The position numbers and the translations under genes were made by a program. From assembly GCA_016939335.1 (NCBI GenBank), contig JAFGHC010000027.1, forward strand, positions 1 to 60,666: DNA of 60,666 bases, given 5' to 3'. Within the stretch, counting starts at the first letter, position 1. The number at the start of each line of letters is the position of its first letter. Origin of the DNA: Candidatus Saganbacteria bacterium. Its GTDB lineage: Bacteria; Margulisbacteria; WOR-1; O2-12-FULL-45-9; XYB2-FULL-48-7. Shown here one piece after another: positions 18,683-33,473 of the stretch. A model generated the notes under the pieces. That model was not told the DNA's origin, searched no databases, and saw only the letters and a program-made list of their open reading frames with translations.

Positions 18683-18723
18683 AAAGGTATTATACTACAG
18701 CTGTAAAGCGGGTGGGAAACAGA

Positions 18724-18772
18724 ATCCCCACACTGAAGTGTGGGGAATTATACCCCGGACTTTAGTCTGGGG
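18724..18772. repeat. Pair of REP-like palindromes
   Basis: ccccacac-tgaa-gtgtgggg and ccccggac-ttta-gtctgggg. Confidence 0.75.
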
Positions 18773-18789
18773 TGCCAAACATCCTGGGT

Positions 18790-18993
18790 TCAGTTCTCCA
18801 GCAGGTCGTACTTGACCCAGCCGCGTTCGATGATCTTCTTGGTCACGTTGTTCTCGGGCACTTCGTAGATAATGACCGTCTCTTCGGTGTAGAGGTTCAT
18901 CGTTTTGCACTTGGGACATTTGATCTCGACACGGCTTCCGTCCGCGACCTTGGCCAGCAGCCGGTGGCAAAATTTACATCTGAATTCTTTCAT
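18790..18993 (-). CDS. Com-family (phage Mu Com-like) zinc-finger protein
   Basis: EFRC..C.RLLAK....EIKCPKCKTMN. Confidence 0.75.
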   Translation of the reverse strand: MKEFRCKFCHRLLAKVADGSRVEIKCPKCKTMNLYTEETVIIYEVPENNVTKKIIERGWVKYDLLEN

Positions 18994-19009
18994 GGTTATT
19001 TATCACTTC

Positions 19010-19588
19010 CTATTTAGGTTGCCCCAACTGCCTTTCCAGAAAATCCAATGACCAGACATAATCCTTATAATCAACTTCGGCTAACTTACTCAAAAATCTC
19101 AAAGCTAGCTCTCTATCAATTTTCTTAAATTCAAAACTATGAACGATCACGCTCATAAGCTTTTTTCCCAAGGTCTCTTTTTCAACCAGCCTGGCATATG
19201 CTTCAAGCTGTTTGGCATCAAGTACCCCCACATCGGGGAAAGCCACGGCTTGCTCGACCGTCATCCGCCCAATTTTTTCGGGAGTTATCCGTTTCACTTC
19301 TTCGGCGGTCAGCGTCTTTATTACTTCAGGGGTAAGCGCTTCTACCGGAAGATTCTCGATCTGCGCGTTTTTTTGCAGTTTTTTCACGTCAGCCAGCGAT
19401 ATCCCGCCAGCGGCAAAGCGGAAGACCGGGCCGACGCCCGGCAGCTTACCCAGGGTTCCTCTAAGCGGGCCTTCCGCCCCAAACACGGCCCGGGCCGCGC
19501 GGGGATACCCTCTGCGCGCCAAACCAAGCGCCGCTCTTTCCAGGCCCGCCTGCAACCGGAAGCCGACCCGCTCCATTCTTATCGCCAT
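19010..19588 (-). CDS. ORFan behind a sigma28-like promoter, with T-x-E 8-aa repeats
   Basis: GGAGG RBS; LTPEVIKT-LTAEEVKR-ITPEKIGR-MTVEQAVA. Confidence 0.65.
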   Translation of the reverse strand: MAIRMERVGFRLQAGLERAALGLARRGYPRAARAVFGAEGPLRGTLGKLPGVGPVFRFAAGGISLADVKKLQKNAQIENLPVEALTPEVIKTLTAEEVKRITPEKIGRMTVEQAVAFPDVGVLDAKQLEAYARLVEKETLGKKLMSVIVHSFEFKKIDRELALRFLSKLAEVDYKDYVWSLDFLERQLGQPK

Positions 19589-19628
19589 TTTATCTGCCTC
19601 CTAAGTTCATCTTCGCCCCGTCATTTGT

Positions 19629-19655
19629 TTATCGGCCCCCCGTTTGAAAAATTTC
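19629..19655 (-). promoter_or_regulatory. sigma28/FliA-like promoter
   Basis: GAAATTTT-N11-GCCGATAA. Confidence 0.75.
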
Positions 19656-19678
19656 ACTTAATTTGTTAATATAACTAA

Positions 19679-20214
19679 CAACACGTCCGCTAGAAACCTT
19701 TAAGTGACCGGCGGACTACGACACGGTCCGACTGCGCCGGACCTACAACTAACAACTTCCGGAGGCGTTAGCGTGTCCTTCAGATTCCTAGATTTCCCGG
19801 TCTACAAAGAAATCAAAAAATACATTGGAGATGTTTACTCGCTCTCCTCAAATTTCCCCAAAGACGAACAATTTGGCTTAACCAATCAATTGCGCCGGGC
19901 CGCGACCTCGATCGCCCTGAATTTGGCCGAAGGATCGGACCGGGGTTCGGACCAAGACTTTAAACGCTTCATCCAAATGGCCATTGGGTCGGTGAACGAA
20001 ACGGTCGCAGTTTTAGATATTGCTCTTGAAATGGGCTTCATTAGCCAAGAAAATTACGCTATAATAATAAAGAAAGCTGAAAGCATTGTTAAGCAATTAT
20101 CCGGTTTTCGGCAATCTTTAAAAGGCCGTTAGTTGTTAGTTGTAGCGAGGCCGCCGCAGGCGGACGAGCGTGTCGTAAGTTGTCAGTCGTAGTTCGCCGC
20201 AGGCGAACGTGTTG
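19679..20214. mobile_element. IVS-like element: nested inverted repeats enclosing a four-helix-bundle gene
   Basis: Pairs 19743-57/20131-45 (15 bp perfect), 19717-25/20169-77, 19679-86/20207-14, with side hairpins. Confidence 0.7.
19773..20132 (+). CDS. Four helix bundle protein (23S rRNA IVS / TIGR02436-like)
   Basis: F.DFPVY, FPKDEQFGLTNQLRRAATSIALNLAEG, F.RFI.MAIGS..E; GGAGG RBS with GTG start. Confidence 0.92.
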   Translation: MSFRFLDFPVYKEIKKYIGDVYSLSSNFPKDEQFGLTNQLRRAATSIALNLAEGSDRGSDQDFKRFIQMAIGSVNETVAVLDIALEMGFISQENYAIIIKKAESIVKQLSGFRQSLKGR

Positions 20215-20218
20215 ATAC

Positions 20219-20291
20219 GCGGGAGTAGCTCAGTTGGTAGAGCATCACCTTGCCAAGGTGAGGGTCGCCGGTTCGAGCCCGGTCTCCCGCT
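20219..20291 (+). tRNA. tRNA-Gly (GCC), CCA not encoded
   Basis: GCGGGAG acceptor stem, D-arm AGCTCAGTTGGTAGAGC, anticodon loop TTGCCAA, GGTTCGAGCCC T-arm. Confidence 0.97.
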
Positions 20292-20357
20292 TTTAACTTG
20301 TAACTTACGAACTTATAACCAATAACTGAAAGAATAACTGAAAGGGGAAATTTTATT

Positions 20358-21692
20358 ATGGTCAGGTTAGGAGAAGAGTATTTTTTTGTCGGTGAACGGG
20401 CAAAAACAGGAGCACGGATCGAGGCGGTGCACGCCCGCCAGGTCCTCGATTCGCGGGGCAACCCGACCGTTGAGGTTGACGTGGCCCTGAAAGACGGCAC
20501 GCTCGGACGGGCGGCGGTCCCCTCGGGCGCTTCGACCGGCGAGCACGAAGCGCTGGAACTGCGGGACAAGGACGACAAGCGCTACGGCGGAAAGGGAGTC
20601 TATACCGCGGTCAAGAACGTCAATGAAATAATCGCGCCCAAGGTCGTCGGGCTCCCCTCGCACCAGCAGTTGAAGATCGACAACCTGATGCTGGAACTTG
20701 ACGGGACCGAGTTCAAGAGCAAGCTGGGCGCCAACGCGCTGCTCGGCGTCTCTCTCGCGGTCGCCCGGGCGGCTTCAATTTCCTACGGAGTGCCATTATT
20801 TAAGTACATCGGCGGCGATCAGGCCGTCACCCTCCCCGTACCCAACATGAACGTGATGAACGGCGGCGCCCACGCCGGCTGGAACTACGAGCTCCAGGAA
20901 TTCATGATCTCGCCGGCCGGGGCCCAGTCCTACTCCGACGCCTTGCGGATCGGCGCCGAGGTCTATCAGGCCCTGAAAAAGGTACTGAAAGATAAAGGGC
21001 ACCCCACCACCGTCGGCGACGAAGGCGGGTTTGCCCCCAAGCTGACGAAAAACGAGGAAGCGATCCAGGTCATCATCGAAGCGATCGAGCAGGCCGGCTA
21101 TACGCCGGGCCAAGATGTTTATCTCTCGCTTGATCCCGCCTCAAGCGGATTTTACAAAGACGGCAAATACAGCCTGAAGAGCGAAGGCAAAGAGTTTTCG
21201 GCCGGAGAAATGGTCGACATGTATGAGCAATGGGTCGGGAAATACCCAATAATTTCCATCGAGGACGGCCTGGCGGAAGACGACTGGGACGGCTGGAAGA
21301 TCATGACCGAAAGATTGGGGCAAAAGATCCAGCTGGTCGGCGACGATATTTTTGTCACCAACCCGGACTTCCTGAAGAAAGGGATCAAGCAAAAGTGCGG
21401 CAACTCGATCCTGATCAAGCTTAACCAGATCGGGACGCTGTCGGAAACACTCTACACAATGGAAGTCGCCAAAGCGGCCGGCTATACATATATGACCTCG
21501 CACCGGAGCGGCGAGACGGAAGATGCGACGATCGCCGACCTGGCGGTGGCCAGTAACTCCGGCCAGATCAAGACCGGCGCGCCGGCACGGTCGGAGCGGG
21601 TCTGTAAATATAATCAGTTGCTGCGGATCGAAGAAATACTCGGGGCTAAAGCGAAGTATATCGGACTGGCGGGGTTCAACCCGAAAGTCTGA
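20358..21692 (+). CDS. eno: Enolase
   Basis: [48 protein letters not shown]. Confidence 0.98.
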
Positions 21693-22740
21693 CAAGCAAC
21701 CGCAACCTGACCCCGTTCGGGCTGTCCACTTCGAGGCCGGAGTTCGTGGGCGCCAATATTTGCGGCCGGACTTTCCCTTGAAGCGCGCTCCCCTCTCTGG
21801 GCGCCTTCAGCGCCTCTTTTCGCGCTTCCACTTCGCCCTCGAGCCGTGCCAATCGCATTTCGACGACCATCAGTCTTTTGTCCATTCGCCAGGCGGCGCT
21901 TCCTTCCGGCAATTTCCCCTTCTTTCCGGCCAAGCGCTGAAGTTGTTTCCGGGCGGCCCCGATCTCTTTGCCGATCTTGGCCAGATACTTCATGTATTTC
22001 CCCAGATCGCCTTTAACATATCTTCCGCACTTCAGTCTTAAATCGACGTCCTGGATCTCACGCCAAATCACCACATTACTTGAGCGCAGCTGCGCCAGCA
22101 ATGAACGGCTTGTCAGTACTTTTTGGCCGGTCCAGTGGACCATTAGTCCAGTGCTCCCTTCTCTCAGCTTCAAAATACCGCCAGAATGGCGTTCAACCGC
22201 AATAGTTCGGACAATTTCTCCCGGTGATAAGCCAACCAGGGAACGGTCCTGTTCGGCCAGGTCATGCGCCATCCTATTGATTATTCTTATCTGCTCTATG
22301 TCTTTTGCCAGCCCCTTTGCCTTTTGCCCCAGCAACTCTAAACCAAGCTGCAAATCATAACCGCCATTATCTTTAAGCATCTCTCCCGGGGGAATTTCCC
22401 CTTGCCGGATGCCCGATAAAAGCTCGTCTATTTTGGCGCTCATATCATCGACACGTTTGGCAAAAAAATAAAGCTGCCTGCCTGTGAATTTCTCCTGCCC
22501 AAGACGTCCTTCTATCATCACCAGGCTTGTATACATATATGTCAGCAAGACCTGCCCCAGTTGTAAAAAAGTCGGCTGCGCATGCCAGTTGATCGCGCCC
22601 GGCCGGATAATCGGTCCTGTTTGCAGGCGGGGATTTTCCTGGATAATTATCCCCGGCTGTATCCTGGCCCCTGTTCGTATAACTTTGGCTAACGACATGG
22701 ATTTATTATTGATTCCCGGCCCAACTTGTCCGACTGCCAT
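21676..22740 (-). CDS. ORFan behind a sigma28-like promoter, C-terminal coiled coil
   Basis: 354 aa ORF convergent with eno; GAGG RBS; no recognisable family. Confidence 0.65.
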
Positions 22741-22762
22741 TTAAAAAGTTGCCTCAAAATAA

Positions 22763-22789
22763 TTATCTGCCTGGAGAACATTAAATTTC
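22763..22789 (-). promoter_or_regulatory. sigma28/FliA-like promoter
   Basis: GAAATTTA-N11-GCAGATAA. Confidence 0.65.
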
Positions 22790-22902
22790 ACCCAATCCCA
22801 ACTTTTTTCAGATCTTGGGCGTGGAAGCCAAAAGCTGCCGGGCAGAGGGACACCCCGGTTCACCTTTTATCGGTTTAGCTCCAACTATCTGGAAGTTCAC
22901 GG

Positions 22903-23571
22903 CTAACAGAGATGAACAGGGACCGGCGTCCCGGTCGCCGACAAATGCGCGGCGCGATATTGTTCGGCAAAGAGGTCCTTGATCTCGTGCCGGCCGGGAT
23001 TTGCCGGGTCAAGCCGCAGTTCGGGTTCGGCTTTCAGATAGCCAAGGAAATAAGCCAGGTTGGAGACCAGCTGGCGCGGCCCCAGGGGCCCCTCCCGCTC
23101 GTTATAACAGTTCAGATAGATCATTTGCCTCGGCTCATCCATGTGCCGCCATTTCAAAACCGAATGATCGATCAGGGAAAAAGCGAACGGGTGGTTCTCG
23201 GCCCAATCCGCTCCTTCCAGTACACCGTCAACCACAAAACCTCTGACCACCGAACCGTTCTGCCGGTTGTATAGATGCGAGCAAAAGACCAGCGCCCGGC
23301 AAAATCCAGCCAAATCGGCTGACAGTCCTGCCCGATCGATCAATTCCTGCATCTCGACCGGGACCAGCGAAATATCGGTCCTAACAAGAACGCTCTTCTC
23401 TTTCGCCCTAAAACCGGCGCACAGTTCCTGAACGACCTGGAACGAAGGGGCGGAAGTTTCGGTGCCATGTTCAAAACCGAGCAGCGCCCGTTCCACGTGC
23501 GCCTGCCGGCCCAGCCGATAGCGGCCGACGCAGCTGGTCATTAAGCCTAAAGAAAGCGCCCTGAATGCCAT
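22903..23571 (-). CDS. ORFan behind a sigma28-like promoter; degenerate zincin-like C-terminus
   Basis: IYLN ... LAYFLGYL ... HEIKDLFAEQY resembles IYLN..LAHELGH..E.EAD.FA. Confidence 0.55.
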   Translation of the reverse strand: MAFRALSLGLMTSCVGRYRLGRQAHVERALLGFEHGTETSAPSFQVVQELCAGFRAKEKSVLVRTDISLVPVEMQELIDRAGLSADLAGFCRALVFCSHLYNRQNGSVVRGFVVDGVLEGADWAENHPFAFSLIDHSVLKWRHMDEPRQMIYLNCYNEREGPLGPRQLVSNLAYFLGYLKAEPELRLDPANPGRHEIKDLFAEQYRAAHLSATGTPVPVHLC

Positions 23572-23585
23572 GTTAATTCGGGTAT

Positions 23586-23612
23586 CTATCGCCAGAGCCA
23601 GCGGGGAATTTC
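23586..23612 (-). promoter_or_regulatory. sigma28/FliA-like promoter
   Basis: GAAATTCC-N11-GGCGATAG. Confidence 0.6.
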
Positions 23613-23622
23613 AGTTCTGGGA

Positions 23623-24327
23623 TTAGATCCGCAGGGTCGAGGCAAGGAGTTTCTGGGTGTAGGGGTGGCGCGGGGTAGCCAGAACCTCGGCCGGGGGGCC
23701 GAGCTCGACAATCTCCCCTTCCTTCATGACCGCGATCCGGTCGCTCAAATAGCCGATGACTGACAGGTCGTGGGCGATAAAAAGATAGGTCAGCCCGATC
23801 GTCCGCTTCAGCTCTTTTAGCAACATCAATATTTCCGCCTGGACCGAAACGTCAAGCGACGAGACCGGCTCGTCGAGCACGAGGAATTGCGGTCGCGAAG
23901 CGAGGGCGCGGGCGATGCCGACCCGCTGGCGCTCGCCGCCGGAAAGCTCGTGCGGGTAACGCCCGGCGTATCCCTTCGGCAGCCTGACCATTTCCAGCAA
24001 CTCATCGACTTTACTGCCGGTTTTATGAATTTTAATCGGCTCCGCGATCGCTTCACCGACGCGTATTCTCGGGTTAAGCGAGGTCTGCGGGTCCTGGAAA
24101 ACGATCTGGCAATCGCGGCGGAGGTTGTCCAGGCCGTGATAAATGACCGAACCCGAAGTCGGCGCGATCAGCCGCAGGACCAGCCGGGCGAGCGTCGATT
24201 TTCCCGAGCCCGATTCGCCGACCAGGCCGAGCGTTTCGCCCTTAAAGATCCGCAGATCGATCCCGTTGACAGCGGTTAGCGGGCCGAATCTCTTAACGAG
24301 TTTGTTTATTCCGATCAGTTCATTCAC
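23623..24327 (-). CDS. oppF: Oligopeptide ABC transporter ATPase (OppF-like)
   Basis: [29 protein letters not shown]. Confidence 0.88.
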
Positions 24328-25123
24328 GGTTAATTATCCTCAAGGCGTCGAGCAGCTTGCGCGTATAGGAAGATTGCGGGCGGGAAAGGACCGCGGCCAC
24401 CGGGCCGGTCTCGACGACAGAGCCTTTGTTAATGACCAGAACGTCCCTGCAGAACGCCTTCACGATGCCGAAATTATGGGTGATAAAAATGACGGACAGG
24501 TTAAACTCCGCCTGCACCTCTTTTAACAGCTGGATGATCTCCAGCTGGATCGTGGTGTCGAGCGCGGTCGTCGGCTCGTCGGCGATCAGGAGCTGCGGCC
24601 GGCAGGCGAGCGCCATGGCGATCATCACCCGCTGGCGCATCCCGCCGGAAAACTGGTGCGGATAGTCATGGGCCCGCCGCTCCGCTTCCTTGATGTGGAC
24701 CGCCTCGAGCCTTTTGACCGCCGCCGCCCAGGCCGCCGCGCGCCCCAGCCCCTGATGCAACCTGACCGCTTCGGCGATCTGCTCGCCGACCGTAAAAACC
24801 GGGTTGAGCGAAGTGAACGGGTCCTGGAAGATCATCGAGATCTTGGCGCCGCGGACGCGGACCATTTCAGCGTCTGATAATTTAAGCAGGTTTTTGCCGT
24901 CAAAAATTATTTCGCCGGACGTGATCCTCCCGGGCGGCGCGATCAATTTCATGAGCGCCAGGGCGATCGTCGATTTGCCGGAGCCGGACTCGCCCGCGAT
25001 GCCAAGCGTGGCCCCCTTGGCCAGGCTAAAGCTGACGTTAGCGACCGCCTTAACGCCCGGATAAACTACCGATAAATTCCCCACAATTAATTGTGGGGAA
25101 TTTTTTAAATTATTGTCTAACAT
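24320..25123 (-). CDS. oppD: Oligopeptide ABC transporter ATPase (OppD-like)
   Basis: [35 protein letters not shown]; start uncertain. Confidence 0.88.
25074..25103. repeat. Perfect 30-bp palindrome (REP-like family) in the oppD 5' region
   Basis: aaattccccacaattaattgtggggaattt. Confidence 0.8.
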
Positions 25124-25910
25124 CGAGCTTCTCCCTGATCCCTTCGCCGACAAAATAGAGCGAGAGGACGGTAACGAGGATCAGCAGGCCCGGGATGATC
25201 GCCAGCCAGGGGGCGTCGAACATATAAGCCTGGGAGTCCATCAGCATATTCCCCCAGGAGGCCATCGGCGGCTGGACGCCGAGCCCGAGAAAAGAGAGCG
25301 CCGACTCGGTCAGGATCGCCCCCGCCATCCCCAGCGTGCCGGCCACGATGATCGGCGCCTGGGCGTTGGGCAGGATATGGCGGAAGATGATGCGCCGGTC
25401 CGAACAGCCGATGGCGCGGGCCGCCTCGACGTACTGGAGCTCGCGGATACGCAGGAACTCGCCTCTGACCAGGCGGGCCACTCCCATCCAGGAGGTCAGG
25501 CCGATCACCACCATGACGTTATAAATGTTGGGCGTCAGCATCGCCTGGATCGCCAGGATGAGGAAGATCGAAGGGAACGCCAGCATCACGTCGACAAAGC
25601 GCATGATGACAGAATCGAAGAAGCCCCCATAATAGCCGGCCAGCGAACCGAAGAGCGTGCCGATCACGATCGAGATGAGGACGGCGACCAGTCCGACGGA
25701 AAGCGAAACGCGCGCGCCGAAAAGCGCCCGGCTGAAAAGGTCGCGGCCCAGGTCGTCGGTCCCGAAGAAATGGGAAAATGACGGCGGCAGGGTCTGGCTG
25801 GCCACGATCTCGTCAGGGCCATAGGGCGCGAGCAGCGGCGCCGCAGCCGCCAGCAGGACAAAAATCGCCAGGACCGTCAAACCAAAGATCACCAGTTTAT
25901 TCTTTCCCAT
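25110..25910 (-). CDS. oppC: Oligopeptide ABC permease (OppC-like)
   Basis: FGTDDLGRD, YVEAARAIG EAA motif, ESALSFLGLG. Confidence 0.9.
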   Translation of the reverse strand: MGKNKLVIFGLTVLAIFVLLAAAAPLLAPYGPDEIVASQTLPPSFSHFFGTDDLGRDLFSRALFGARVSLSVGLVAVLISIVIGTLFGSLAGYYGGFFDSVIMRFVDVMLAFPSIFLILAIQAMLTPNIYNVMVVIGLTSWMGVARLVRGEFLRIRELQYVEAARAIGCSDRRIIFRHILPNAQAPIIVAGTLGMAGAILTESALSFLGLGVQPPMASWGNMLMDSQAYMFDAPWLAIIPGLLILVTVLSLYFVGEGIREKLDVRQ

Positions 25911-26808
25911 AGCGTATCCTCGGATCGACCAGAGAGTAGCCAAGGTCGGCCAGCAGATTGGCGATCACGATCAGCAAAGCGGAGAACATGACGATCCCCA
26001 TGATCACCGGATAGTCGCGCTGGAAAATGGACTGCACGCCGAGCCGCCCCATCCCCGGCCAGGCGAAGATCGTCTCGATAATAAAGGCGCCGCCGAAAAG
26101 ATCAGGCAAGGAAAGGCCGAGGATCGTCACGATCGGGATGAGCGCGTTGCGCAGGGCGTGTTTAAAAATTACCACTCTCTCGGGCAAGCCCTTCGCCCGG
26201 GCGGCGCGGATAAAATCCTGGCCCAGCACTTCGAGCATCGCCGAACGCTGGTAACGGGTCAGCCCCGCCAGGTTGCCGAGCGTCATGGTGAGGAGCGGCA
26301 GGATCAGGTTGCCAACCGCCGGGAACCAGTGCAGCTTGACCGAAAATAAGAGCATCAGCATCAGTCCGAGCCAAAACGTCGGCATCGCCATGCCGGTGAA
26401 GGAAAGGAAAGTGACTGTATTATCGAACCAGGAGCCTTTTCTGACGGCGGAAATGACACCCACAGGGATAGTTATGAGCAAAGTGATAAGGAACGCCGGG
26501 ACCATGAGCAACAGCGTGACCGGCAAACGCTGGGCAATTTCGTAAATGACCGGCTGGCCGGTCGTGTAGCTCTGGCCGAAATCGAGCAGGCAGGCGTTCT
26601 TGAGCCAGAGGAAATACTGGATGTAAACCGGCTGGTCAAGCCCCCAGTTCGCCCGCACGCGGGCCAGCTCTTCCGGCCGGACGTTGGGGTCGATAAACAA
26701 GGCGGTCGGGTCGCCCGGCGCCAGGTGCATGACGAAGAAGGAGATGAGCGAAATGCCGATCAGGAGGGGAATAAGCTGAAGCAGCCTTTTGATAAAATAC
26801 TTGCGCAC
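25897..26808 (-). CDS. oppB: Oligopeptide ABC permease (OppB-like)
   Basis: APGDP, ARAKGL, HALRNA, ETIFAWPGMG, DPRIR. Confidence 0.9.
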   Translation of the reverse strand: MRKYFIKRLLQLIPLLIGISLISFFVMHLAPGDPTALFIDPNVRPEELARVRANWGLDQPVYIQYFLWLKNACLLDFGQSYTTGQPVIYEIAQRLPVTLLLMVPAFLITLLITIPVGVISAVRKGSWFDNTVTFLSFTGMAMPTFWLGLMLMLLFSVKLHWFPAVGNLILPLLTMTLGNLAGLTRYQRSAMLEVLGQDFIRAARAKGLPERVVIFKHALRNALIPIVTILGLSLPDLFGGAFIIETIFAWPGMGRLGVQSIFQRDYPVIMGIVMFSALLIVIANLLADLGYSLVDPRIRYGKE

Positions 26809-26831
26809 CGGTTCATTTTAGTATATTAACT

Positions 26832-26858
26832 GAAATTTCTCCACTCCGGCGCCGATAA
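26832..26858 (+). promoter_or_regulatory. sigma28/FliA-like promoter
   Basis: GAAATTTC-N11-GCCGATAA, 6 nt before the GTG start. Confidence 0.75.
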
Positions 26859-26864
26859 TTTTGC

Positions 26865-27806
26865 GTGAGCGAGCTAAGTATTCCACCGCTGTCATATTCT
26901 CATGCCGAGCCTGCCGAGCCGCCCGTAAAAAAGACGGGAGCTGGCAGTGAAAGCCAGGTTCCGCAAAAACCGGTGACGGTCCGGCCAAAAGCCAAGGGCC
27001 TGTTGCAGGGGTTTGGATATTTCAATCCCGGCCTCGGTGCAATGTACGGCGCTTCGATCAATGCCTACGAAAACGCCTTAAATCATCCGGCTTACGGCGA
27101 AATGAAAGCCGAATACTCCCCGACCGTGATCACGGATGACAAGCCGGACCTTTCCTCTGTCTTTCATCACTGGTCTTTTTTTGTCGACCTGGGACAATTC
27201 CGCCTCGGGCACGATTTGAGCAATACTGACCAAACGCTGCTGCTGCGCGAAAGCTACCTGACCGACAACTTCTATCTGACCTACAATATCAGGGAATTAA
27301 CGGTCGAAATGACGAAGCAAAACTACGGCTGGCTCAGCCTTTCGCTCTTGAGTTTCGGGGAAAAAGATAACCCGGTCTTTTTCACCCTCTGGCTCGATTA
27401 TGCTCTGGACCGCTACAACTTTACTTTCAAGGGCTCGAGTTATTCATATTATCCCTACCCCACGCCCGAAAAGGACCTCAATTCCGAGGCCCTGCTCGGT
27501 TCGGGCGGCGGCTGGGGGCACCGGATCGCCGCCGACATCGTTCTGACGAGTTCGGAGGGCCGGCCGGGCCGCGGCGAATTCGCCTGGTTCTTATCGCTGC
27601 AAACGGGCTACAACTTCGGCCAGCTGAGCGATGCCGCCAACGGCTGGCGGAGCCGGTTGTCCGCCTGGACCACCGGCATTTCCTTCGGGGTGCAGTTCAA
27701 TCACACCGGCGCGCAGACAAAATATGTGGATTGTCCCGAGCAGGATACTGGTCACGGACCCGACGGCGACTATTGCGATCTGACCAGGGACTATTACGAC
27801 TATTAG
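26865..27806 (+). CDS. ORFan antisense within the opp operon; aromatic beta-strand-rich (beta-barrel-like)
   Basis: Pro/Ser-rich N-terminus without signal peptide; alternating aromatic strands ending ...GISFGVQF plus an acidic tail. Confidence 0.65.
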   Translation: MSELSIPPLSYSHAEPAEPPVKKTGAGSESQVPQKPVTVRPKAKGLLQGFGYFNPGLGAMYGASINAYENALNHPAYGEMKAEYSPTVITDDKPDLSSVFHHWSFFVDLGQFRLGHDLSNTDQTLLLRESYLTDNFYLTYNIRELTVEMTKQNYGWLSLSLLSFGEKDNPVFFTLWLDYALDRYNFTFKGSSYSYYPYPTPEKDLNSEALLGSGGGWGHRIAADIVLTSSEGRPGRGEFAWFLSLQTGYNFGQLSDAANGWRSRLSAWTTGISFGVQFNHTGAQTKYVDCPEQDTGHGPDGDYCDLTRDYYDY

Positions 27807-27817
27807 GCCGCCCGCCC

Positions 27818-29359
27818 CTACTTTCTGATATAAACCTTCTCGAGATGCAGGAACAACCCCGCCGGCCCGGGCTTTGACAAACCACCCACCCGCTCCCCGA
27901 CACCGGTCACGATCTTCGGGTACCAGAGGAAGATATACGGCTGGTCGGCGGCGATCAGGTCCCAGAGCCGCCGGTAGACCGCCCGCCGCCGGTTTCTGGC
28001 AATGGTCGTCCGCCCCTGCTCCAGCAGCTTGTCGGCTGCGGGATTTTTATACTTTACGAAATTAAACCCTTTCGGATACTGGCTGGAGTGCCAGATCGCA
28101 TAAGCGTCGGGATCGAGCCCGAGCGACCAGCCCATGATCACCGCCTCAAAATCTTTGGGATCTTTCGGCGCGTTGACGATCTTGAGCAGGGCCGACCATT
28201 CAAGGACGCGGACATTGACCTTGACGCCGACCTTTTTGTATTGCTGCTGGAGGATGACCGCCGCTTTTTCCCGCTCTTTATTCCCCTGGTTGACGAGAAT
28301 GGTGAACTCGAGATTCTCTTTGCCCGCCTCTTTCAACAGGCGTCTGGCCTTCTCCGGATCGTAATCATATTTCGGCACCCGGTCGGAATACGCCCAGGAG
28401 ACCGGGGCCGACGGGGCGTAGGCCGGTGAAGCGAGTCCCCGGAAGATCAGGCCGACCAGCTGTTTCTTGTCGGTGGCGTAAGCCAGCGCCTGCCGGACGC
28501 GCCGGTCGGCGAACTTGGGATTGGCCAGATTGAAACCAAGGTAAGTGTAGAGCAGCGCGTCATATTCATAAACGTTGACCCCTCTGGCCGCCTTCATCCG
28601 CGTGTAGTCTTTGGGCGGGATGTCGGCCTCGTCGATCTCGCCGGCCTCCAGGGCGACCAGGCGCGAATTCGCGTCCGGGATCTCTTTGTAAACGATCTGT
28701 TTGAGAAGCGGTTTGCCCAAATAGTAGCCGGAATTGCGCTCGACCGTCACGCGGTCGCCGGCGCGCCACTCCTTGAAGATGAACGGCCCGGTGCCGACGG
28801 GGCGGCGGTTAAACCTGGCCCTGTTAATGTCTTTATCGGCCAGCAAATGTTTGGGGATAATGCCGATCCCCGCGTTGATCAGGAACGGAGCGAACGGCTG
28901 CGGCAGGAGCGCCTGGACGGTGTGCCGATCAACGACGCGGAACTCGATCGGCTTGCCGTCGATGATGAAATCGCTCCGGCGGACGGAGTTGACCTTGGGG
29001 TTAAGGATCGAATCAAAAGTGAATTTGACGTCCGCAGCCGTAAATGGAACGCCGTCATGCCACCTGACATTTTTGCGCAGATGGAAAGTCCAGGTTTTGC
29101 CATCCGGAGAAACCGCCCAGCGCTCCGCCAGGTCGGGGACCATCTCCAGCTTTTCGTTAACGGTCACCAGCCCGCTGAAGATCGCGCCTTCGACCGCCGA
29201 GGAAACGCTGTCGGTGGAGAGGATCGGGTTGAGGACGGAGACTTCGCCCCCGAGGCTGAAGCGAAGGGCTCCCTCAGGATCAGGGAGTGACAGGGAGTGG
29301 CAGGGATGAGCAAGGATGAGCAGGGAAAACATTAAAACTATGCTTTTTGCCCTGGACAT
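27818..29359 (-). CDS. oppA: Oligopeptide ABC substrate-binding protein (OppA/AppA-like)
   Basis: PDLAE.W.VS.DGKTWTFHLR....WHDG.PFTA.DV, PVGTGPF, D.RVRQAL; start adjusted to MSRAK. Confidence 0.9.
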   Translation of the reverse strand: MSRAKSIVLMFSLLILAHPCHSLSLPDPEGALRFSLGGEVSVLNPILSTDSVSSAVEGAIFSGLVTVNEKLEMVPDLAERWAVSPDGKTWTFHLRKNVRWHDGVPFTAADVKFTFDSILNPKVNSVRRSDFIIDGKPIEFRVVDRHTVQALLPQPFAPFLINAGIGIIPKHLLADKDINRARFNRRPVGTGPFIFKEWRAGDRVTVERNSGYYLGKPLLKQIVYKEIPDANSRLVALEAGEIDEADIPPKDYTRMKAARGVNVYEYDALLYTYLGFNLANPKFADRRVRQALAYATDKKQLVGLIFRGLASPAYAPSAPVSWAYSDRVPKYDYDPEKARRLLKEAGKENLEFTILVNQGNKEREKAAVILQQQYKKVGVKVNVRVLEWSALLKIVNAPKDPKDFEAVIMGWSLGLDPDAYAIWHSSQYPKGFNFVKYKNPAADKLLEQGRTTIARNRRRAVYRRLWDLIAADQPYIFLWYPKIVTGVGERVGGLSKPGPAGLFLHLEKVYIRK

Positions 29360-29833
29360 ATTAATAGTTTGTTGTCTTGTTCTGAAAATAATCATAATAA
29401 TTGATCCAGGTGCCTGTTTTTTCTTTGGCCCTGAGGGATTGGATCAGCCTTTTCAAAATATAAATAGTTTTGCCGACTAACGAGTCGAGCGCATCAAACT
29501 CCTCTCGGGAAATCAATCTATCATCGAAACAGTCCCTGATGTCACCAAGCAACTCGGCGGCAGAATCATGCGAAATAGAAAGATATGACATGTATTTCTT
29601 GATCGACCCTTTGCCATAACCTTCTTGAATATTTTGTTTGATCGACCTGGCGGCGTCACGCATTTGAGAAACCCTGCGCATTTCTATTTTCGGGAACTTC
29701 GTAGTAATCTCATGAACCATCTTTCTCAATTTATAAGCATTTTGCCAGGCGATCAGCTTTTCGTACCCTTTCCCCTCCACAGTCTTACCCTCCCTGCTAA
29801 TCCCTCCTCATCCCCGTTCCTCCCCGTCACTCC
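29281..29833. mobile_element. IVS-like element: about 45-bp inverted 10-mer tandem arms enclosing a four-helix-bundle gene
   Basis: 29281-29326 (cagggagtga cagggagtgg cagggatgag caaggatgag caggga) versus 29791-29833 (tccctgctaa tccctcctca tccccgttcc tccccgtcac tcc). Confidence 0.75.
29361..29780 (-). CDS. Four helix bundle protein (23S rRNA IVS / TIGR02436-like)
   Basis: YEKLIAWQ.A, FPK.E.R..SQMRDAARSIKQNIQEGY, YLSIS.DS..EL. Confidence 0.9.
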   Translation of the reverse strand: MEGKGYEKLIAWQNAYKLRKMVHEITTKFPKIEMRRVSQMRDAARSIKQNIQEGYGKGSIKKYMSYLSISHDSAAELLGDIRDCFDDRLISREEFDALDSLVGKTIYILKRLIQSLRAKEKTGTWINYYDYFQNKTTNY

Positions 29834-30240
29834 TATAAATTAGTAAGCTCGAGGACTTTCGCGATCCCATTTTTCTTGTAGCCGGTCAGCGCGTAGACCT
29901 GCGTCGCGTCGGTATAATTGTAAATGATCTTCCCCATGACATCGCCGTCGGCATACTCTTGGCCGGTGAACGGGTTCTTGGGCACGGCGGCCATATACCC
30001 TCCTCCCATCAAATAGTTCCGGCAGAGCGATTCGAGCGGGAGATTGTAAGCGATCGGGTAAACATTGTTGTCCATCTGGTAAGCTTCGATCGCCAGCTGG
30101 ACCGTGTGCATGACCCCCTTGACCCCCGCCTCCTTCGCCCGGTCGCGCGCGCCGAGCAGGTTCGGCGCCAGAAAGACCGCCAGCAGCCCGATGATGCCGA
30201 TAACGACCAGGATTTCTACAAGAGTAAAACCTTTTCTCAT
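29833..30240 (-). CDS. Type IV pilin / T2SS pseudopilin (GspG-like)
   Basis: Prepilin motif KG-FTLVEIL followed by a hydrophobic helix. Confidence 0.85.
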   Translation of the reverse strand: MRKGFTLVEILVVIGIIGLLAVFLAPNLLGARDRAKEAGVKGVMHTVQLAIEAYQMDNNVYPIAYNLPLESLCRNYLMGGGYMAAVPKNPFTGQEYADGDVMGKIIYNYTDATQVYALTGYKKNGIAKVLELTNL

Positions 30241-30264
30241 GATCACCTCCGATTATACTCCAAA

Positions 30265-31281
30265 CTACTGCAAACTTGAAACCAGATCCGTGAGCGGCAA
30301 AAACATCGCCAGCACCACCACGCCCACTATCAGGCCAACGCCTAAAGTCATGGCCGGCTCGAGCAGCGCGGTGAAACGCTTGAGCAGCAACTCGCGCTCG
30401 CCCGCCTGAAAAGCGGCCACGCTCAAGAGCAAACGGTCCATCTGGCCGGTGGCTTCTCCCAACTTCAACAACTGCCGAGCCTCGGGCGGCCAGGGGCCGC
30501 CGCGCAAAGCGGCGCTCAAACTCGCCCCGTTCTCGATCTGCCGGGCGGCCGCCTGCAACGCCGCTTTCATCGCCTGGCTATCGAGCGACTCGCCGGTCAC
30601 CCGTAGCGCCTCGAGCAGCGGCGCGCCGCCCTGCAAGAGTGAGCCGAGCGTTCCGCAACTCTGGAGCGTCAGCTCCTGCCGGTAGAGACGGCCGAAAAGC
30701 GGCGTTTTGAGAATAAAGCGCTCCAGCCATAACGGGCGGCGGTTTTTCAAGTTAATAAGCGCTGCCCCGCCAGCAACCGCCGCCAGCAAAAAAACCGGCC
30801 AAAGCGCGGTGAATCCCCCGCTCACCTGAAGAATGAGGCTGGTTATAAGCGGCAGTGACCGGCCGCTCTCGGTCAACAGCGAATTGAGGCCGGGCAGAAC
30901 AAAGACGATCAGCACCAGGACCGACAGCAAACTGATCAGCGTGACAAACGCCGGATAAACGAGTGCCGCGGCCAGTTTGGCATCGAGGTCTGCTTTGACC
31001 GTGTAATCGGCCGCCAGCCGGCCCAGACAACCCTCAAGGTCTCCCGCGTGTTCAGCCGCCTTTAATGCTCCGGCCGCCGGCGGCGGCAACAGTTCGCGCG
31101 CCGCTTCGCTTAAGGGCAAGCCGTGGTTGAGTTTTTCGATCGCCAGGTCCAGCGCCTGGGTGTGTTTTCTGACCGGCGGCAAGCCGCGCGCCACCGACAG
31201 GGCGGCGAGTAACGGCAGGCCGGCGGAGAGCAGCGAGCGAAGGTGCGAACAGAAGTCGGCGGTCTGGCGTTTGTTCAACAT
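30265..31281 (-). CDS. Type II secretion F / PilC family inner-membrane protein
   Basis: L.AGLPL..AL, AE.AGDL, LVYP, GE.TG.MD, LLEP two-domain repeat. Confidence 0.88.
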   Translation of the reverse strand: MLNKRQTADFCSHLRSLLSAGLPLLAALSVARGLPPVRKHTQALDLAIEKLNHGLPLSEAARELLPPPAAGALKAAEHAGDLEGCLGRLAADYTVKADLDAKLAAALVYPAFVTLISLLSVLVLIVFVLPGLNSLLTESGRSLPLITSLILQVSGGFTALWPVFLLAAVAGGAALINLKNRRPLWLERFILKTPLFGRLYRQELTLQSCGTLGSLLQGGAPLLEALRVTGESLDSQAMKAALQAAARQIENGASLSAALRGGPWPPEARQLLKLGEATGQMDRLLLSVAAFQAGERELLLKRFTALLEPAMTLGVGLIVGVVVLAMFLPLTDLVSSLQ

Positions 31282-31287
31282 GAATGA

Positions 31288-31824
31288 CTATTTAAAAATC
31301 ATCTGTTTCAACAGCTCGATCATCTCATTGATGATTTTCTTAACTCTTGCGATTTCGCCCGCTTTGATCTTATCTTTTTGAAAAAGATGCATAATAGCGC
31401 GTGAATGCGTGGATAGTTTGTTCATCACAGCTGGGCTTTTTAGAATCATTTGCCTATTTTTACCCATTATTTCTTCCAAAATCGTAAAAGCCCGCATGAT
31501 TTGAATTGAACGTTGAATGGCGACCGGAGATCTTAGAACAACTGATACCATATTGGCGCCGTTACGCGTGAAAACATAGGGCAGATACCGGCGGCCACCC
31601 CAACTTGAGGTCGCAATTTGCGACCTCAAGAATTTATATTCAGGCCCCGTTAATTGGAACATAAAATCAGCTGGAAATCTTTCGGAGTTCCGCTTAACTC
31701 TTTCCACCAGTTTTTTCGTGGGAATACAATATATTTTGGCTAAGTCAACGTCCAAGATCACTCTCTGTCCTCTTATTTCAATTATCATCGACTGTATCTC
31801 CCTCGTTTCAACAATATCTGACAT
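31288..31824 (-). CDS. ORF6N (KilA-N-like) domain DNA-binding protein
   Basis: IRGQRVILD.DLA.IY, VKRN.ERFP.DFMFQLT, GGRRYLPYVFT..GA.M.S.VLRS. Confidence 0.88.
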   Translation of the reverse strand: MSDIVETREIQSMIIEIRGQRVILDVDLAKIYCIPTKKLVERVKRNSERFPADFMFQLTGPEYKFLRSQIATSSWGGRRYLPYVFTRNGANMVSVVLRSPVAIQRSIQIMRAFTILEEIMGKNRQMILKSPAVMNKLSTHSRAIMHLFQKDKIKAGEIARVKKIINEMIELLKQMIFK

Positions 31825-31976
31825 GATTTCCCTCCCAGAAGTCTCATTTAGCGACTTCTGAATTGAGGGAAGCAATTTTATTGCCAGAAAGAAGAGAAAT
31901 TTTGTAGCTGTTTTTTTATGATAAAATCGGGGAAAACAGAAAAAGCAAGATTTCTGGACCGGCGGGATTTCGTCAG

Positions 31977-33473
31977 TTACTTTTGAATTCGGGGGAAAAG
32001 CGGCGCCCCTTTGACGACTTTCTCGCCGCTGAGGTTAATCTGGGCCTTGATTTTTTCCGCGGTTTCGGGCATGAATGGAGCGATCAGCGCCGTGACCAGC
32101 GTGAGAACCTCGACCAGGTTAACCAGCACCAGCGCCAACCGCTCTTTCTCTCCGTTCTTGGCCAGCGTCCAGGGCGCCTGTTTTTCAATGTAAACGTTGG
32201 CCCGGGAGATCAGCGTCCAGATCGCCGTCAGGGCGTCCGAAAACGCCAACTCATCCATATATTTATCGACCAGCCCAGGGGTCTCTTTGATCAGGCCGAT
32301 CAATTCCCGGCTCAAATCGTCCATGACCGCGGATTTCGGACTTGGAACTTGTGACTCGCAGTATTTCTCCACCATCGTCAGCGTCCGGCTCAAGAGGTTC
32401 CCCAGATCATTGGCCAGATCAGCATTATACCGGTTGATGAAAGAATTCATGGAAAAGTCGCCGTCAACGCCGAACGGCACTTCGCGCAGGATGAAATAGC
32501 GGACGGCGTCGACCCCGTACTCCGCGCTCAAGGCGAGCGGATCGACCACGTTGCCGCGGCTCTTGCTCATTTTTGCCCCTTCGACCGTCCACCAGCCGTG
32601 CCCGAAAATTTTTTTCGGCAAAGGCAGCCCCAGCGCCAGCAGCAGGCAAGGCCAGGTCACGGCGTGGAAACGGACGATCTCCTTCCCCATCAGATGGACG
32701 TCGGCCGGCCAGAACTTGCGGAAGAGGCCGTCATCGGCGCTCAAATAACCGAGGGCGGAAACGTAGTTGATCAGCGCGTCGAACCAGACGTAGACGACAT
32801 GGCGCGGGTCCTCGGGCACGACGATCCCCCAGGGAAAAGCGGTGCGCGTGACCGAAAGGTCTTTCAGCCCCTGTTTGACGAACTGAACAATCTCGTTGCG
32901 GCGCGGCTCGGGCCGGATAAAATCTGGGTTGGCCTCGATGTGCCGCAGCAGCGGTTCCTGGTATTTGGAAAGCCGGAAGTAGTAGGTCTCTTCGCGCAGC
33001 CGGTCGGCCGGCCGGCCGCAGTCGGGGCAGAGCCGGCGCTCCTCCATGTCCTCGGCCAGGTCGGACTCGTTCCAATAAGTTTCGCAGGGGACGCAGTACC
33101 ACCCCTCGTATTCGCCCTTGTAGATATCGCCCTGTCTGAGCAGCCGGCCGAAGATCTTCTGGACGGCCGTTTCGTGCTTCCGGTCGGTGGTGCGGATGAA
33201 GTCGTCATAGCTGATGCCCAGTTTGTCCCAGGCGTCCCGGAAGCGGACGACTATCTTATCGACATATTCCTGAGGCGACAGGTTGTTTTGTTCGGCCGCT
33301 TTCCAGACCTTCTGGCCGTGCTCGTCAGTGCCGGTGAGAAAATGGACGTCGCAGCCCGCCGCCCGCTTGTGGCGCGCCAGCACGTCGGCGGCGATCGTCG
33401 TGTAGGCGTGGCCGAGATGCGGCACGTCGTTGACGTAATAAAGGGGGGTCGTCAGGTAAAACTTTTCCTTCAT
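31977..33473 (-). CDS. metG: Methionine--tRNA ligase (short form, no C-terminal dimerisation domain)
   Basis: YYVN..PHLGH, GTDEHG, YVWFDAL, KMSKS, LFPRI. Confidence 0.97.
   Translation of the reverse strand: MKEKFYLTTPLYYVNDVPHLGHAYTTIAADVLARHKRAAGCDVHFLTGTDEHGQKVWKAAEQNNLSPQEYVDKIVVRFRDAWDKLGISYDDFIRTTDRKHETAVQKIFGRLLRQGDIYKGEYEGWYCVPCETYWNESDLAEDMEERRLCPDCGRPADRLREETYYFRLSKYQEPLLRHIEANPDFIRPEPRRNEIVQFVKQGLKDLSVTRTAFPWGIVVPEDPRHVVYVWFDALINYVSALGYLSADDGLFRKFWPADVHLMGKEIVRFHAVTWPCLLLALGLPLPKKIFGHGWWTVEGAKMSKSRGNVVDPLALSAEYGVDAVRYFILREVPFGVDGDFSMNSFINRYNADLANDLGNLLSRTLTMVEKYCESQVPSPKSAVMDDLSRELIGLIKETPGLVDKYMDELAFSDALTAIWTLISRANVYIEKQAPWTLAKNGEKERLALVLVNLVEVLTLVTALIAPFMPETAEKIKAQINLSGEKVVKGAPLFPRIQK

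Follow-up and report, generated by a model that had tools for sequence, protein, structure and literature searches.

In Coxiella burnetii, the intervening sequence (IVS) in helix 45 of 23S rRNA has a 28-bp terminal stem that is cut by RNase III, carries an S23p open reading frame (ORF) in the loop of that stem, and has tandem heptamers upstream of the S23p ORF, as far as the consulted part of that report describes it (PMC4990558). Here we describe an element of comparable build outside rRNA, in a stretch of 60,666 nucleotides from Candidatus Saganbacteria bacterium (assembly GCA_016939335.1, contig JAFGHC010000027.1, positions 1 to 60,666), which as a whole is called the window. The element consists of a gene for a four-helix-bundle (4HB) protein of the S23p family (PF05635), flanked by inverted arms of 10-nt tandem units, and lies between a pilin gene and a gene for a solute-binding protein (SBP). 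Our favoured reading, which we regard as modestly probable, is that of an IVS-like cassette, a 4HB gene with its cognate 10-nt-unit arms, placed in line after the pilin stop codon and ahead of the SBP gene, with the 3′ arm co-opted as coding sequence. A second point of comparison is offered by repetitive extragenic palindromic (REP) sequences and their REP-associated tyrosine transposases (RAYTs), the REP/RAYT (REPIN) system (Nunvar et al. 2010; Bertels and Rainey 2011). There, short palindromic repeats in inverted orientation border a small gene, members of the repeat family are also dispersed without the gene, and each gene clade has its own repeat type; the RAYTs themselves are Y1 transposases of the IS200/IS605 type. 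PF05635 is very common among bacterial protein families and, to our knowledge, has no known role outside Avd of diversity-generating retroelements (DGRs). We found no paper, supplementary files aside, that describes 4HB/S23p genes with tandem-unit arms outside rRNA, and in that setting an IVS-type build was likewise not found in print.

The features at the junction, all on the reverse strand, are the following.

29833 to 30246, reverse strand: pilin gene (GspG-like pseudopilin or type IV pilin), whose stop codon adjoins the 5′ arm.

29791 to 29833, reverse strand: 5′ arm (in the sense of the gene strand), rich in G and made up of about four units of 10 nt (GGGGA/CAGGGA type).

29361 to 29780, reverse strand: 4HB gene, 139 aa, four-helix-bundle (PF05635/TIGR02436), with a GTG start at 29780 and a TAA stop at 29361–29363.

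29281 to 29326, reverse strand: 3′ arm (gene strand), C-rich, TCCCTGNNNN units with a period of 10 and 4.6 copies, translated within the SBP.

27818 to 29359, reverse strand: SBP gene (OppA/DppA-like family-5 solute-binding protein, SBP_bac_5), with a putative signal peptide that is partly arm-encoded.

30265 to 31281, reverse strand: GspF/PilC-like platform gene, co-oriented with the pilin gene and upstream of it, named from tblastn synteny only.

On the gene strand, the order is therefore pilin stop, G-rich arm, 4HB gene, TAA, one base, SBP ATG, C-rich arm and mature SBP. The inverted arms proper (29284–29326 and 29791–29833) are 43 nt each, 81% complementary and separated by 464 nt, and Tandem Repeats Finder reports a period of 10 at 29281–29326 (4.6 copies), at 29791–29814 (2.4 copies) and at 29811–29833 (2.3 copies). 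The original prediction, made from the sequence of the window, had described reverse-complementary 10-mer arms of about 45 bp flanking the ORF, one starting at the pilin stop codon and the other lying within the OppA N-terminus, and in all of this it was right. The 5′ arm begins on the third base of TAG, the stop codon of the pilin gene (29833–29835), and the 3′ arm encodes SBP residues 12–26, SLLILAHPCHSLSLP. The 5′ arm contains GGAGG/GGGAGGG Shine-Dalgarno-like runs upstream of the 4HB start and, being G-rich, can be fitted by eye with a G-quadruplex motif. The GTG start at 29780 aligns with the ATG of the orthologous 4HB gene in a relative (G009). The SBP ATG lies at 29359, 1 nt past the 4HB stop TAA, and the SBP N-terminus reads MSRAKSIVLMFSLLILAHPCHSLSLPDPEG. 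The close succession of stop and start, with TAA-T-ATG here and TAAATG in the G009 cassette, suggests that translation of the SBP is coupled to that of the 4HB gene.

The complementarity of the two arms is not a product of chance. The inverted-repeat score of the flanks is 27, whereas 3000 controls of identical geometry, placed at random in the source genome, reach 23 at most, and in a predicted RNA fold of the whole cassette the arms pair in both the minimum-free-energy and the centroid structure (−190.6 kcal/mol, z = −5.44), with none of 100 shuffled sequences folding as well. Chance is therefore excluded for the arm pair by the random-placement control together with the RNA-fold shuffles.

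The 4HB protein exceeds the curated cut-offs of both PF05635 (E 2.6e-21, 76.3 bits, cut-off 33.8), the only Pfam family matched, and TIGR02436 (E 5.7e-20, 71.6 bits, cut-off 24), and is thus a member of the 23S rRNA IVS protein (S23p) family. It also matches chain A of PDB entry 2GSC (XCC0516) over residues 5–82, a match at the level of sequence (phmmer E 1.9e-8). The likeness to the 23S rRNA IVS extends beyond the family of the ORF: in the part of the Coxiella report consulted, the ORF sits in the loop of a long stem of terminal inverted repeats, and short tandem repeats lie upstream of it (PMC4990558); the elements are also alike in size, at ~430–550 nt. Terminal complementary sequences closing a stable stem, by which an IVS is recognized, have their counterpart here in the 43-nt arms and the predicted fold. 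In contrast to an IVS, however, the cassette lies between pilin and SBP genes rather than in a 23S rRNA helix (25 or 45), both of its arms consist wholly of 10-nt units, and one arm is translated in a host protein. An Rfam search at a permissive threshold over 18500–31500 found one tRNA only and no rRNA; no large-subunit rRNA is assembled anywhere in the source genome.

A further difference concerns the state of the ORF. Decay of the Coxiella ORF is reported in the consulted part of that paper (PMC4990558), whereas the 4HB gene is under purifying selection and evolves like a constrained host gene. Between the source genome (G000) and G009, dN is 0.094 and dS 0.80 for the 4HB gene (dN/dS 0.117), as against 0.119 and 1.14 for the SBP gene (dN/dS 0.104); between G000 and G040, dN is 0.226 (4HB) and 0.262 (SBP). 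A divergence close to that of its neighbours fits vertical descent of the 4HB gene at the pilin–SBP site.

Within the same protein family, Avd and the pentameric XCC0516 (2GSC) are homologous four-helix bundles, according to the portion of the Avd paper available to us (PMC10053308). On the strength of this resemblance between PF05635 and Avd, and of one RVT_1 gene in the source genome, the 4HB protein might be taken for an Avd-type accessory protein of a DGR, working with a reverse transcriptase. We consider this most improbable. The cassette has no adjacent reverse transcriptase, and 4HB copies far outnumber reverse transcriptases in the genomes of the class: a reverse transcriptase was found in 12 of the 41 class genomes searched, compared with PF05635 in 39 of 41 (214 matches), and three genomes with 10–15 4HB copies (G007, G031 and G040) gave no reverse transcriptase match. 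These genomes are small (1.1–2.0 Mb) and hold up to 15 4HB copies each. In the source genome, the sole reverse transcriptase is on another contig (C41), which has no 4HB match. There is no reverse transcriptase gene in the cassette locus, where template and variable repeats were not searched for. The RVT_1 gene on C41 (9500–13500) is a 265-aa ORF with a YMDD motif that adjoins a 280-aa ORF, with no 4HB gene beside it, and may belong to a DGR.

The 41 class genomes also show how the cassette is distributed. SBP orthologues occur in 40 of them, gspF–pilin–SBP synteny is conserved, and 38 orthologous pilin–SBP junctions could be compared, an array being called when the alignment score to the arm of the source genome was at least 21 and the period-10 self-match at least 0.6. 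The junctions fall into five states.

6 of 38 junctions: C-rich 10-mer array within the SBP N-terminus (G000, G009, G007, G040, G008 and G036).

1 of 38 junctions: decayed array copy (G003).

8 of 38 junctions: compact, with the SBP start codon within the pilin 3′ end (M..RK..SLLICSLL... type).

19 of 38 junctions: compact, with an SBP that has its own start (17 with a lipoprotein-type L-x-G-C signal, 2 with other N-termini).

4 of 38 junctions: other inserts without array, 2 of them unrelated 4HB cassettes (G001 and G031).

The array is thus absent from 31 of the 38 junctions (8 overlap-type, 19 own-start and 4 other-insert), which score 5–11. Five of the six array-bearing junctions keep a related 4HB gene, with identities to that of G000 of 83% (G009), 79% (G007), 72% (G040) and 60% (G008), and in the sixth, G036, the array is present with a different gene in place of 4HB. 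The six junctions span three taxonomic families, G040 and G036 standing outside the family of the source genome. The 5′ arms of CAGGGA type are conserved among the orthologous cassettes; in G040, G007 and G008, extra same-unit hairpins or extra genes are inserted between the 4HB gene and the 3′ arm. Another Margulisiibacteriota record (L095) has a 4HB gene of 74% identity between pilin and SBP, with no arms detected (score 9). The cassette at the pilin–SBP junction is orthologous in at least five relatives. The original prediction had named, as a finding that would speak against it, oppA orthologues that carry the same array with no 4HB gene next to them. Such cases exist marginally, in the array of G036 and the decayed copy of G003, and none of the 27 compact junctions provides one; the junctions of G036 and G003 hold other inserted genes, and their arrays look like remnants.

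The consequence for the SBP is a remodelled N-terminus. By eye, that of the source genome reads MSRAK, then SIVLMFSLLILA, then HPCHSLSLP, and all six array-bearing SBPs have a basic N-region followed by a hydrophobic stretch, which would make a putative Sec-type signal peptide. The 3′ arm, together with an ATG 1 nt past the 4HB stop, appears to give the SBP a different N-terminal putative signal peptide from that of its cassette-less relatives. As judged from the sequences, one orthologous SBP has three different signal-peptide solutions, of which the arm-encoded one seems to be long-lived. In the eight overlap-type relatives (L016–L018, L021, L023, L024, L031 and L041), the apparent SBP ATG lies inside the last ~15 pilin codons in another frame, so that the overlap would be ~45 nt and the N-region of the signal would lie within the pilin C-terminus.

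G000 and G009 retain the open overlap frame inside the pilin 3′ end (MGSRKSSSLLIY... and MAFRKYSSSLTC...), and the overlap-type peptides continue with S-L-L, like the arm-encoded peptide. A single in-frame deletion could conceivably convert the cassette form to the overlap form. On the SBP tree, the cassette states are scattered (5 changes), and the approximately unbiased (AU) test, with groups named after inspection of the tree, does not reject a single clade for either the cassette-derived junctions (p = 0.22) or the 8 compact overlap-type ones (p = 0.19). The SBP tree is thus compatible with gain as well as with loss of the cassette.

The unrelated 4HB cassettes of G001 and G031 begin directly past the same pilin stop. 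The gspF–pilin–SBP string is a repeated landing place, and the pilin–SBP junction is an insertion hot spot. At the neighbouring gspF/pilin junction, five relatives carry 4HB cassettes (L017 in G011, L022 in G009, L027 in G017, L029 in G022 and L038 in G026), of which those of G017 and G026 fall in the 10-mer clade.

A central question is whether the arms belong to the gene or to the individual element. The original prediction had inferred that only the architecture is conserved and that each element generates or diversifies its own arms. Its observations hold: the window contains a second 4HB cassette, around 19679, with the same layout, no common arm sequence and a 4HB protein only 28% identical over 75 aa to that encoded at 29361–29780, and the architecture recurs with different units, as 12 of the 14 PF05635 genes of the source genome (1.53 Mb, 42 contigs) are bordered by inverted arms of short tandem repeats, the unit differing from gene to gene. 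These 14 copies with about a dozen different units, the two window cassettes with unlike arms, and the free variation of 4 of the 10 unit positions between copies would all agree with arms made anew for each element. We nevertheless judge this explanation highly improbable, as units are conserved between orthologues in three taxonomic families, and both the units and the unit length track the protein phylogeny, a tree result that already contradicts it.

The evidence for inheritance of the arms is drawn from several comparisons. Orthologous cassettes in other genera and families retain the CAGGGA-type 10-mer. Where two 4HB proteins from different genomes are 55–76% identical, their arm units are alike even though the flanks show no detectable homology; AAGGnnTC 8-mers, TAAGCTnn-type units and, for the 19679 element, ACAACTAAC-type arms are cases in point. 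Among 809 pairs located at different sites, the mean likeness of the arms increases from 0.16 (below 35% protein identity) to 0.49 (at least 65%), with a Spearman coefficient of 0.25 that none of 500 label permutations reaches.

A scan of 185,579 species genomes with the 4HB protein of 29361–29780 as query returned 33 loci, of which 28 belong, by record title, to other phyla (among them WOR-3, Omnitrophota, Patescibacteria groups, Planctomycetia and Gammaproteobacteria). Pilin, SBP and gspF are absent from the vicinity of the 4HB gene in all 28. After 4 of the 33 were set aside as repeats of class relatives, 24 of the remaining 29 have arms scoring at least 18, with a G-rich upstream arm in 23 of the 24. 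Among the 22 loci with at least 43% identity, 10 is the best period of either arm in 19 cases, and 3 combine a period of 10 in one arm with 9 in the other, whereas the two loci at 28–29% identity have a period of 7. In a phylogeny of 59 4HB proteins, a single clade of 28 rows (support 100) takes in all 23 period-10 cassettes; this clade is richly sampled because the scan began from the 4HB protein of 29361–29780, although period was not used in sampling. Period labels require 7 changes on this tree, compared with a mean of 22.0 for shuffled labels, and none of 200 shuffles is as low.

As such, the unit conservation among orthologues and the match between units and protein tree indicate that the arms descend with the gene and are not re-invented per element. 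The comparison of 4HB phylogeny with arm units that the original prediction had itself proposed therefore speaks against its idea of arms generated per element: orthologues keep the CAGGGA 10-mer, related 4HB proteins share units, and unit length tracks the tree. The 4HB protein of the pilin–SBP cassette belongs to a cross-phylum clade, nearly all members of which have 10-nt-unit arms, G-rich upstream and C-rich downstream. Unit length and sequence that are heritable within protein clades suggest specific recognition, and unit length as a protein-clade trait would point to recognition of the repeat by the protein.

Returning to the IVS-like cassette that we favour, a mechanism at the RNA level can be outlined. 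No promoter or terminator pattern was found on the gene strand of the cassette in a pattern scan, so it is probably transcribed together with its neighbour genes. In the RNA, the arms would close a stem of ~43 bp, by analogy with the ORF-bearing 23S rRNA IVS cut by RNase III. Ribosomes at the pilin stop, at the 4HB start or on the SBP signal-peptide codons might hold this stem open. Were the stem cut, the SBP start codon would be detached from the rest of the gene, which makes constitutive excision hard to reconcile with purifying selection on the SBP and is why stem formation or cleavage would, in the version we favour, be conditional. The 4HB protein, of the pentameric Avd/S23p-like family, probably recognizes its own repeat units, and such recognition would explain why unit length and sequence track the protein tree.

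Direct signs of pairing in sense RNA are slight. Among transition mismatches of the arms in the class set, sense-strand G.U outnumbers A.C by 93 to 64 (p = 0.025; 17 cassettes versus 5), and in the cross-phylum set by 83 to 63 (p = 0.12), a weak hint that the arms pair in sense RNA. The rnc (RNase III) gene is present in the source genome. Two RNA runs of the same study contain next to none of the locus' sequence words.

Several points weigh against this reading, beyond the difficulty that a cut poses for the SBP. The G.U excess is modest, falls short of significance in the cross-phylum set and comes from cassettes that are not independent of one another. Compensatory co-evolution of the arms is not demonstrable with 4 genomes, in which within-genome pairing scores (26, 26, 21 and 29) are not clearly better than cross-genome ones (mean ~20, maximum 30). 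The stem and its cleavage by RNase III are what we infer from sequence, the presence of rnc and likeness to the IVS, and binding of the 4HB protein to its repeats is pure inference. Moreover, the CAGGGA arm family also occurs without any 4HB gene.

The dispersal of gene-less copies leads to a serious rival, a mobile element acting at the DNA level in the manner of REP/RAYT, in which the arms are hairpin recombination sites, the 4HB protein is the cognate factor of the autonomous copy, and gene-less hairpins and arrays are non-autonomous derivatives. Our assessment is that this has an appreciable but clearly minor chance of being correct. In its favour, the flanking repeat family is dispersed in the source genome, with the CAGGGA-type 10-mer at 7 further loci, and the repeat type follows the 4HB clade. 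Related units of gene plus arms occur at non-homologous sites and in different phyla, three unrelated 4HB cassettes (the CAGGGA type and those of G001 and G031) sit directly after the same pilin stop, and the neighbouring gspF/pilin junction holds cassettes in the five relatives listed above.

The source genome as a whole contains 437 tandem arrays (3 or more units, 24 nt or longer), of which 321 are heptamers. Their lengths have a sharp mode at 28–36 nt (4–5 units) rather than a decaying distribution, and for 44 of the arrays an inverted partner lies no more than 1.5 kb away. The most frequent unit families are AATGACG (29 arrays), AAATTCG (28), AAAAGTC (20) and AAATAAC (19). Dispersed arrays of such limited length would suit the REP/RAYT-like explanation, as would the match of the abundant families AATGACG, AAATTCG, AAATAAC and AACTTCC to the arms of resident 4HB genes. 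However, such matches are about as frequent as expected from size-biased chance, and the tracking is loose: across the 41 genomes, AATGACG arrays occur in 8 of 12 with an L009-type 4HB of at least 50% identity, compared with 11 of 28 without. The 4HB protein, a helical bundle of ~120–140 aa with PF05635 as its sole Pfam match, is not a Y1 transposase and shows no nuclease, recombinase or other catalytic domain in the Pfam search, and the repeats are tandem 7–10-nt units. A comparison with insertion sequences and miniature inverted-repeat transposable elements gives a similar picture, as the cassette has inverted arms but comparison of filled with compact junctions reveals no target-site duplication. 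Finally, the cassette at the pilin–SBP site looks vertically inherited.

The same census bears on whether the association is a coincidence, in which a genome full of tandem-unit hairpins has small 4HB genes that merely sit in them or insert into them. Arrays do occur in many contexts, including the inside of genes, and 31 of the 44 inverted pairs are gene-less with loops below 100 nt. When the loop is 300–800 nt long, however, 6 of 7 inverted pairs enclose a 4HB gene; 10 of the 14 4HB genes of the source genome exceed the 99th percentile of random placements of fixed geometry, and arm type goes with protein clade in different phyla and at unrelated sites alike. Coincidence is accordingly disfavoured, and we give it very little credence. 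In the class as a whole, 35 of 52 4HB ORFs with usable flanks have arms scoring at least 18, with several more just below.

The G-rich heptamer pairs of Xanthomonas are similar in that short-unit arrays converge as inverted pairs and keep a conserved intergenic position, as described in the excerpt consulted (PMC4692102). They differ in having a unit of 7 rather than 10 nt, and that excerpt does not mention an enclosed 4HB/S23p gene (PMC4692102).

Metagenome run X1 provides a further view of gene-less copies. One contig (depth 20.3) runs from one arm (29317) to the other (29791) across just 32 unrelated letters, and other contigs match a single arm with 4–5 differences. We rejected the arm-to-arm contig as an excised cassette, its likeness of 85% leading us to read it as a gene-less hairpin of the same arm family. 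The X1 contigs fit, by their sequence, gene-less copies of the CAGGGA arm family elsewhere in the community or the genome.

Absorption of arms into coding sequence, which the original prediction had proposed, is well borne out, by the SBP here, by the 5 other orthologous junctions and by six housekeeping genes. All six CAGGGA/TCCCTG loci examined in the source genome, arrays as well as whole hairpins, are embedded in frame in long ORFs whose Pfam domains are clear.

C2:32248, C4:84583, C18:20094, C25:14859, C25:24223 and C34:113176, source genome: in-frame CAGGGA/TCCCTG loci L082–L087.

The host ORFs are a radical SAM protein, a UvrD/PD-(D/E)XK helicase-nuclease, a Mur-ligase/FolC-like protein, valyl-tRNA synthetase, a Macro-domain protein and MnmG/GidA, and the solo arm in the Macro gene is nearly identical in sequence to the SBP arm. 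With six of six in frame, absorption of arms into coding sequence is common in the source genome. At two other places, L089 (C13:35800–37080) and L090 (C32:100–1450), inverted arrays bracket ORFs of 347 and 355 aa, whose N-termini are array-encoded (KIRNPKSEIRNNFEIRN... and PFVLPFVPPF...).

What the locus adds is a conserved arm-derived putative signal peptide, evidence for clade-specific arms that are passed on along with the gene, and a hot spot of insertion where pilin and SBP genes meet, in a cassette that persists over the long term in line within operons. The recruitment of an arm into a neighbouring protein would be a clear instance, found in nature, of a signal peptide arising from repeat DNA. 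For annotation, it calls for caution, as start codons and N-termini beside such cassettes are remodelled. More speculatively, and with a chance that we put well short of even, the 4HB family may comprise repeat-specific nucleic-acid binders tuned by clade, gene and arms together forming a widespread selfish or regulatory cassette that lacks an enzyme, and solo arrays and hairpins being derivatives that seed repeats in host genes and new signal peptides. We know of no explanation for the excess of 7–10-nt tandem repeats in bacteria; if the repeat-binder proposal were true, it would link this excess to the uncharacterised 4HB family and to the origin of the 23S rRNA IVS.

Some neighbouring features of the window complete the description. 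The second 4HB cassette lies on the forward strand.

19704 to 20195, forward strand: other 4HB cassette (19679 element), with a 4HB ORF ending at 20132 and arms at ~19740–19762 and ~20126–20195.

Its arms combine an internal GC-rich palindrome with ACAACTAAC-type units, and it ends ~25 nt before a tRNA gene at 20219–20291 (Rfam, 69.2 bits). Arms related to those of the 19679 element accompany 4HB proteins of 64–68% identity at unrelated sites in G024 and G032. PADLOC assigns neither 4HB protein of the window to any defence-system family. On the other side of the pilin, an ORF6N-domain gene (E 5.9e-30) at 31288–31875 lies between the gspF-like gene and the next downstream gene. The ORF6N domain is common in regulators of phages and mobile elements. 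Beyond it, at 31977–33473, the translation of a 498-aa ORF has the look of a class I aminoacyl-tRNA synthetase.

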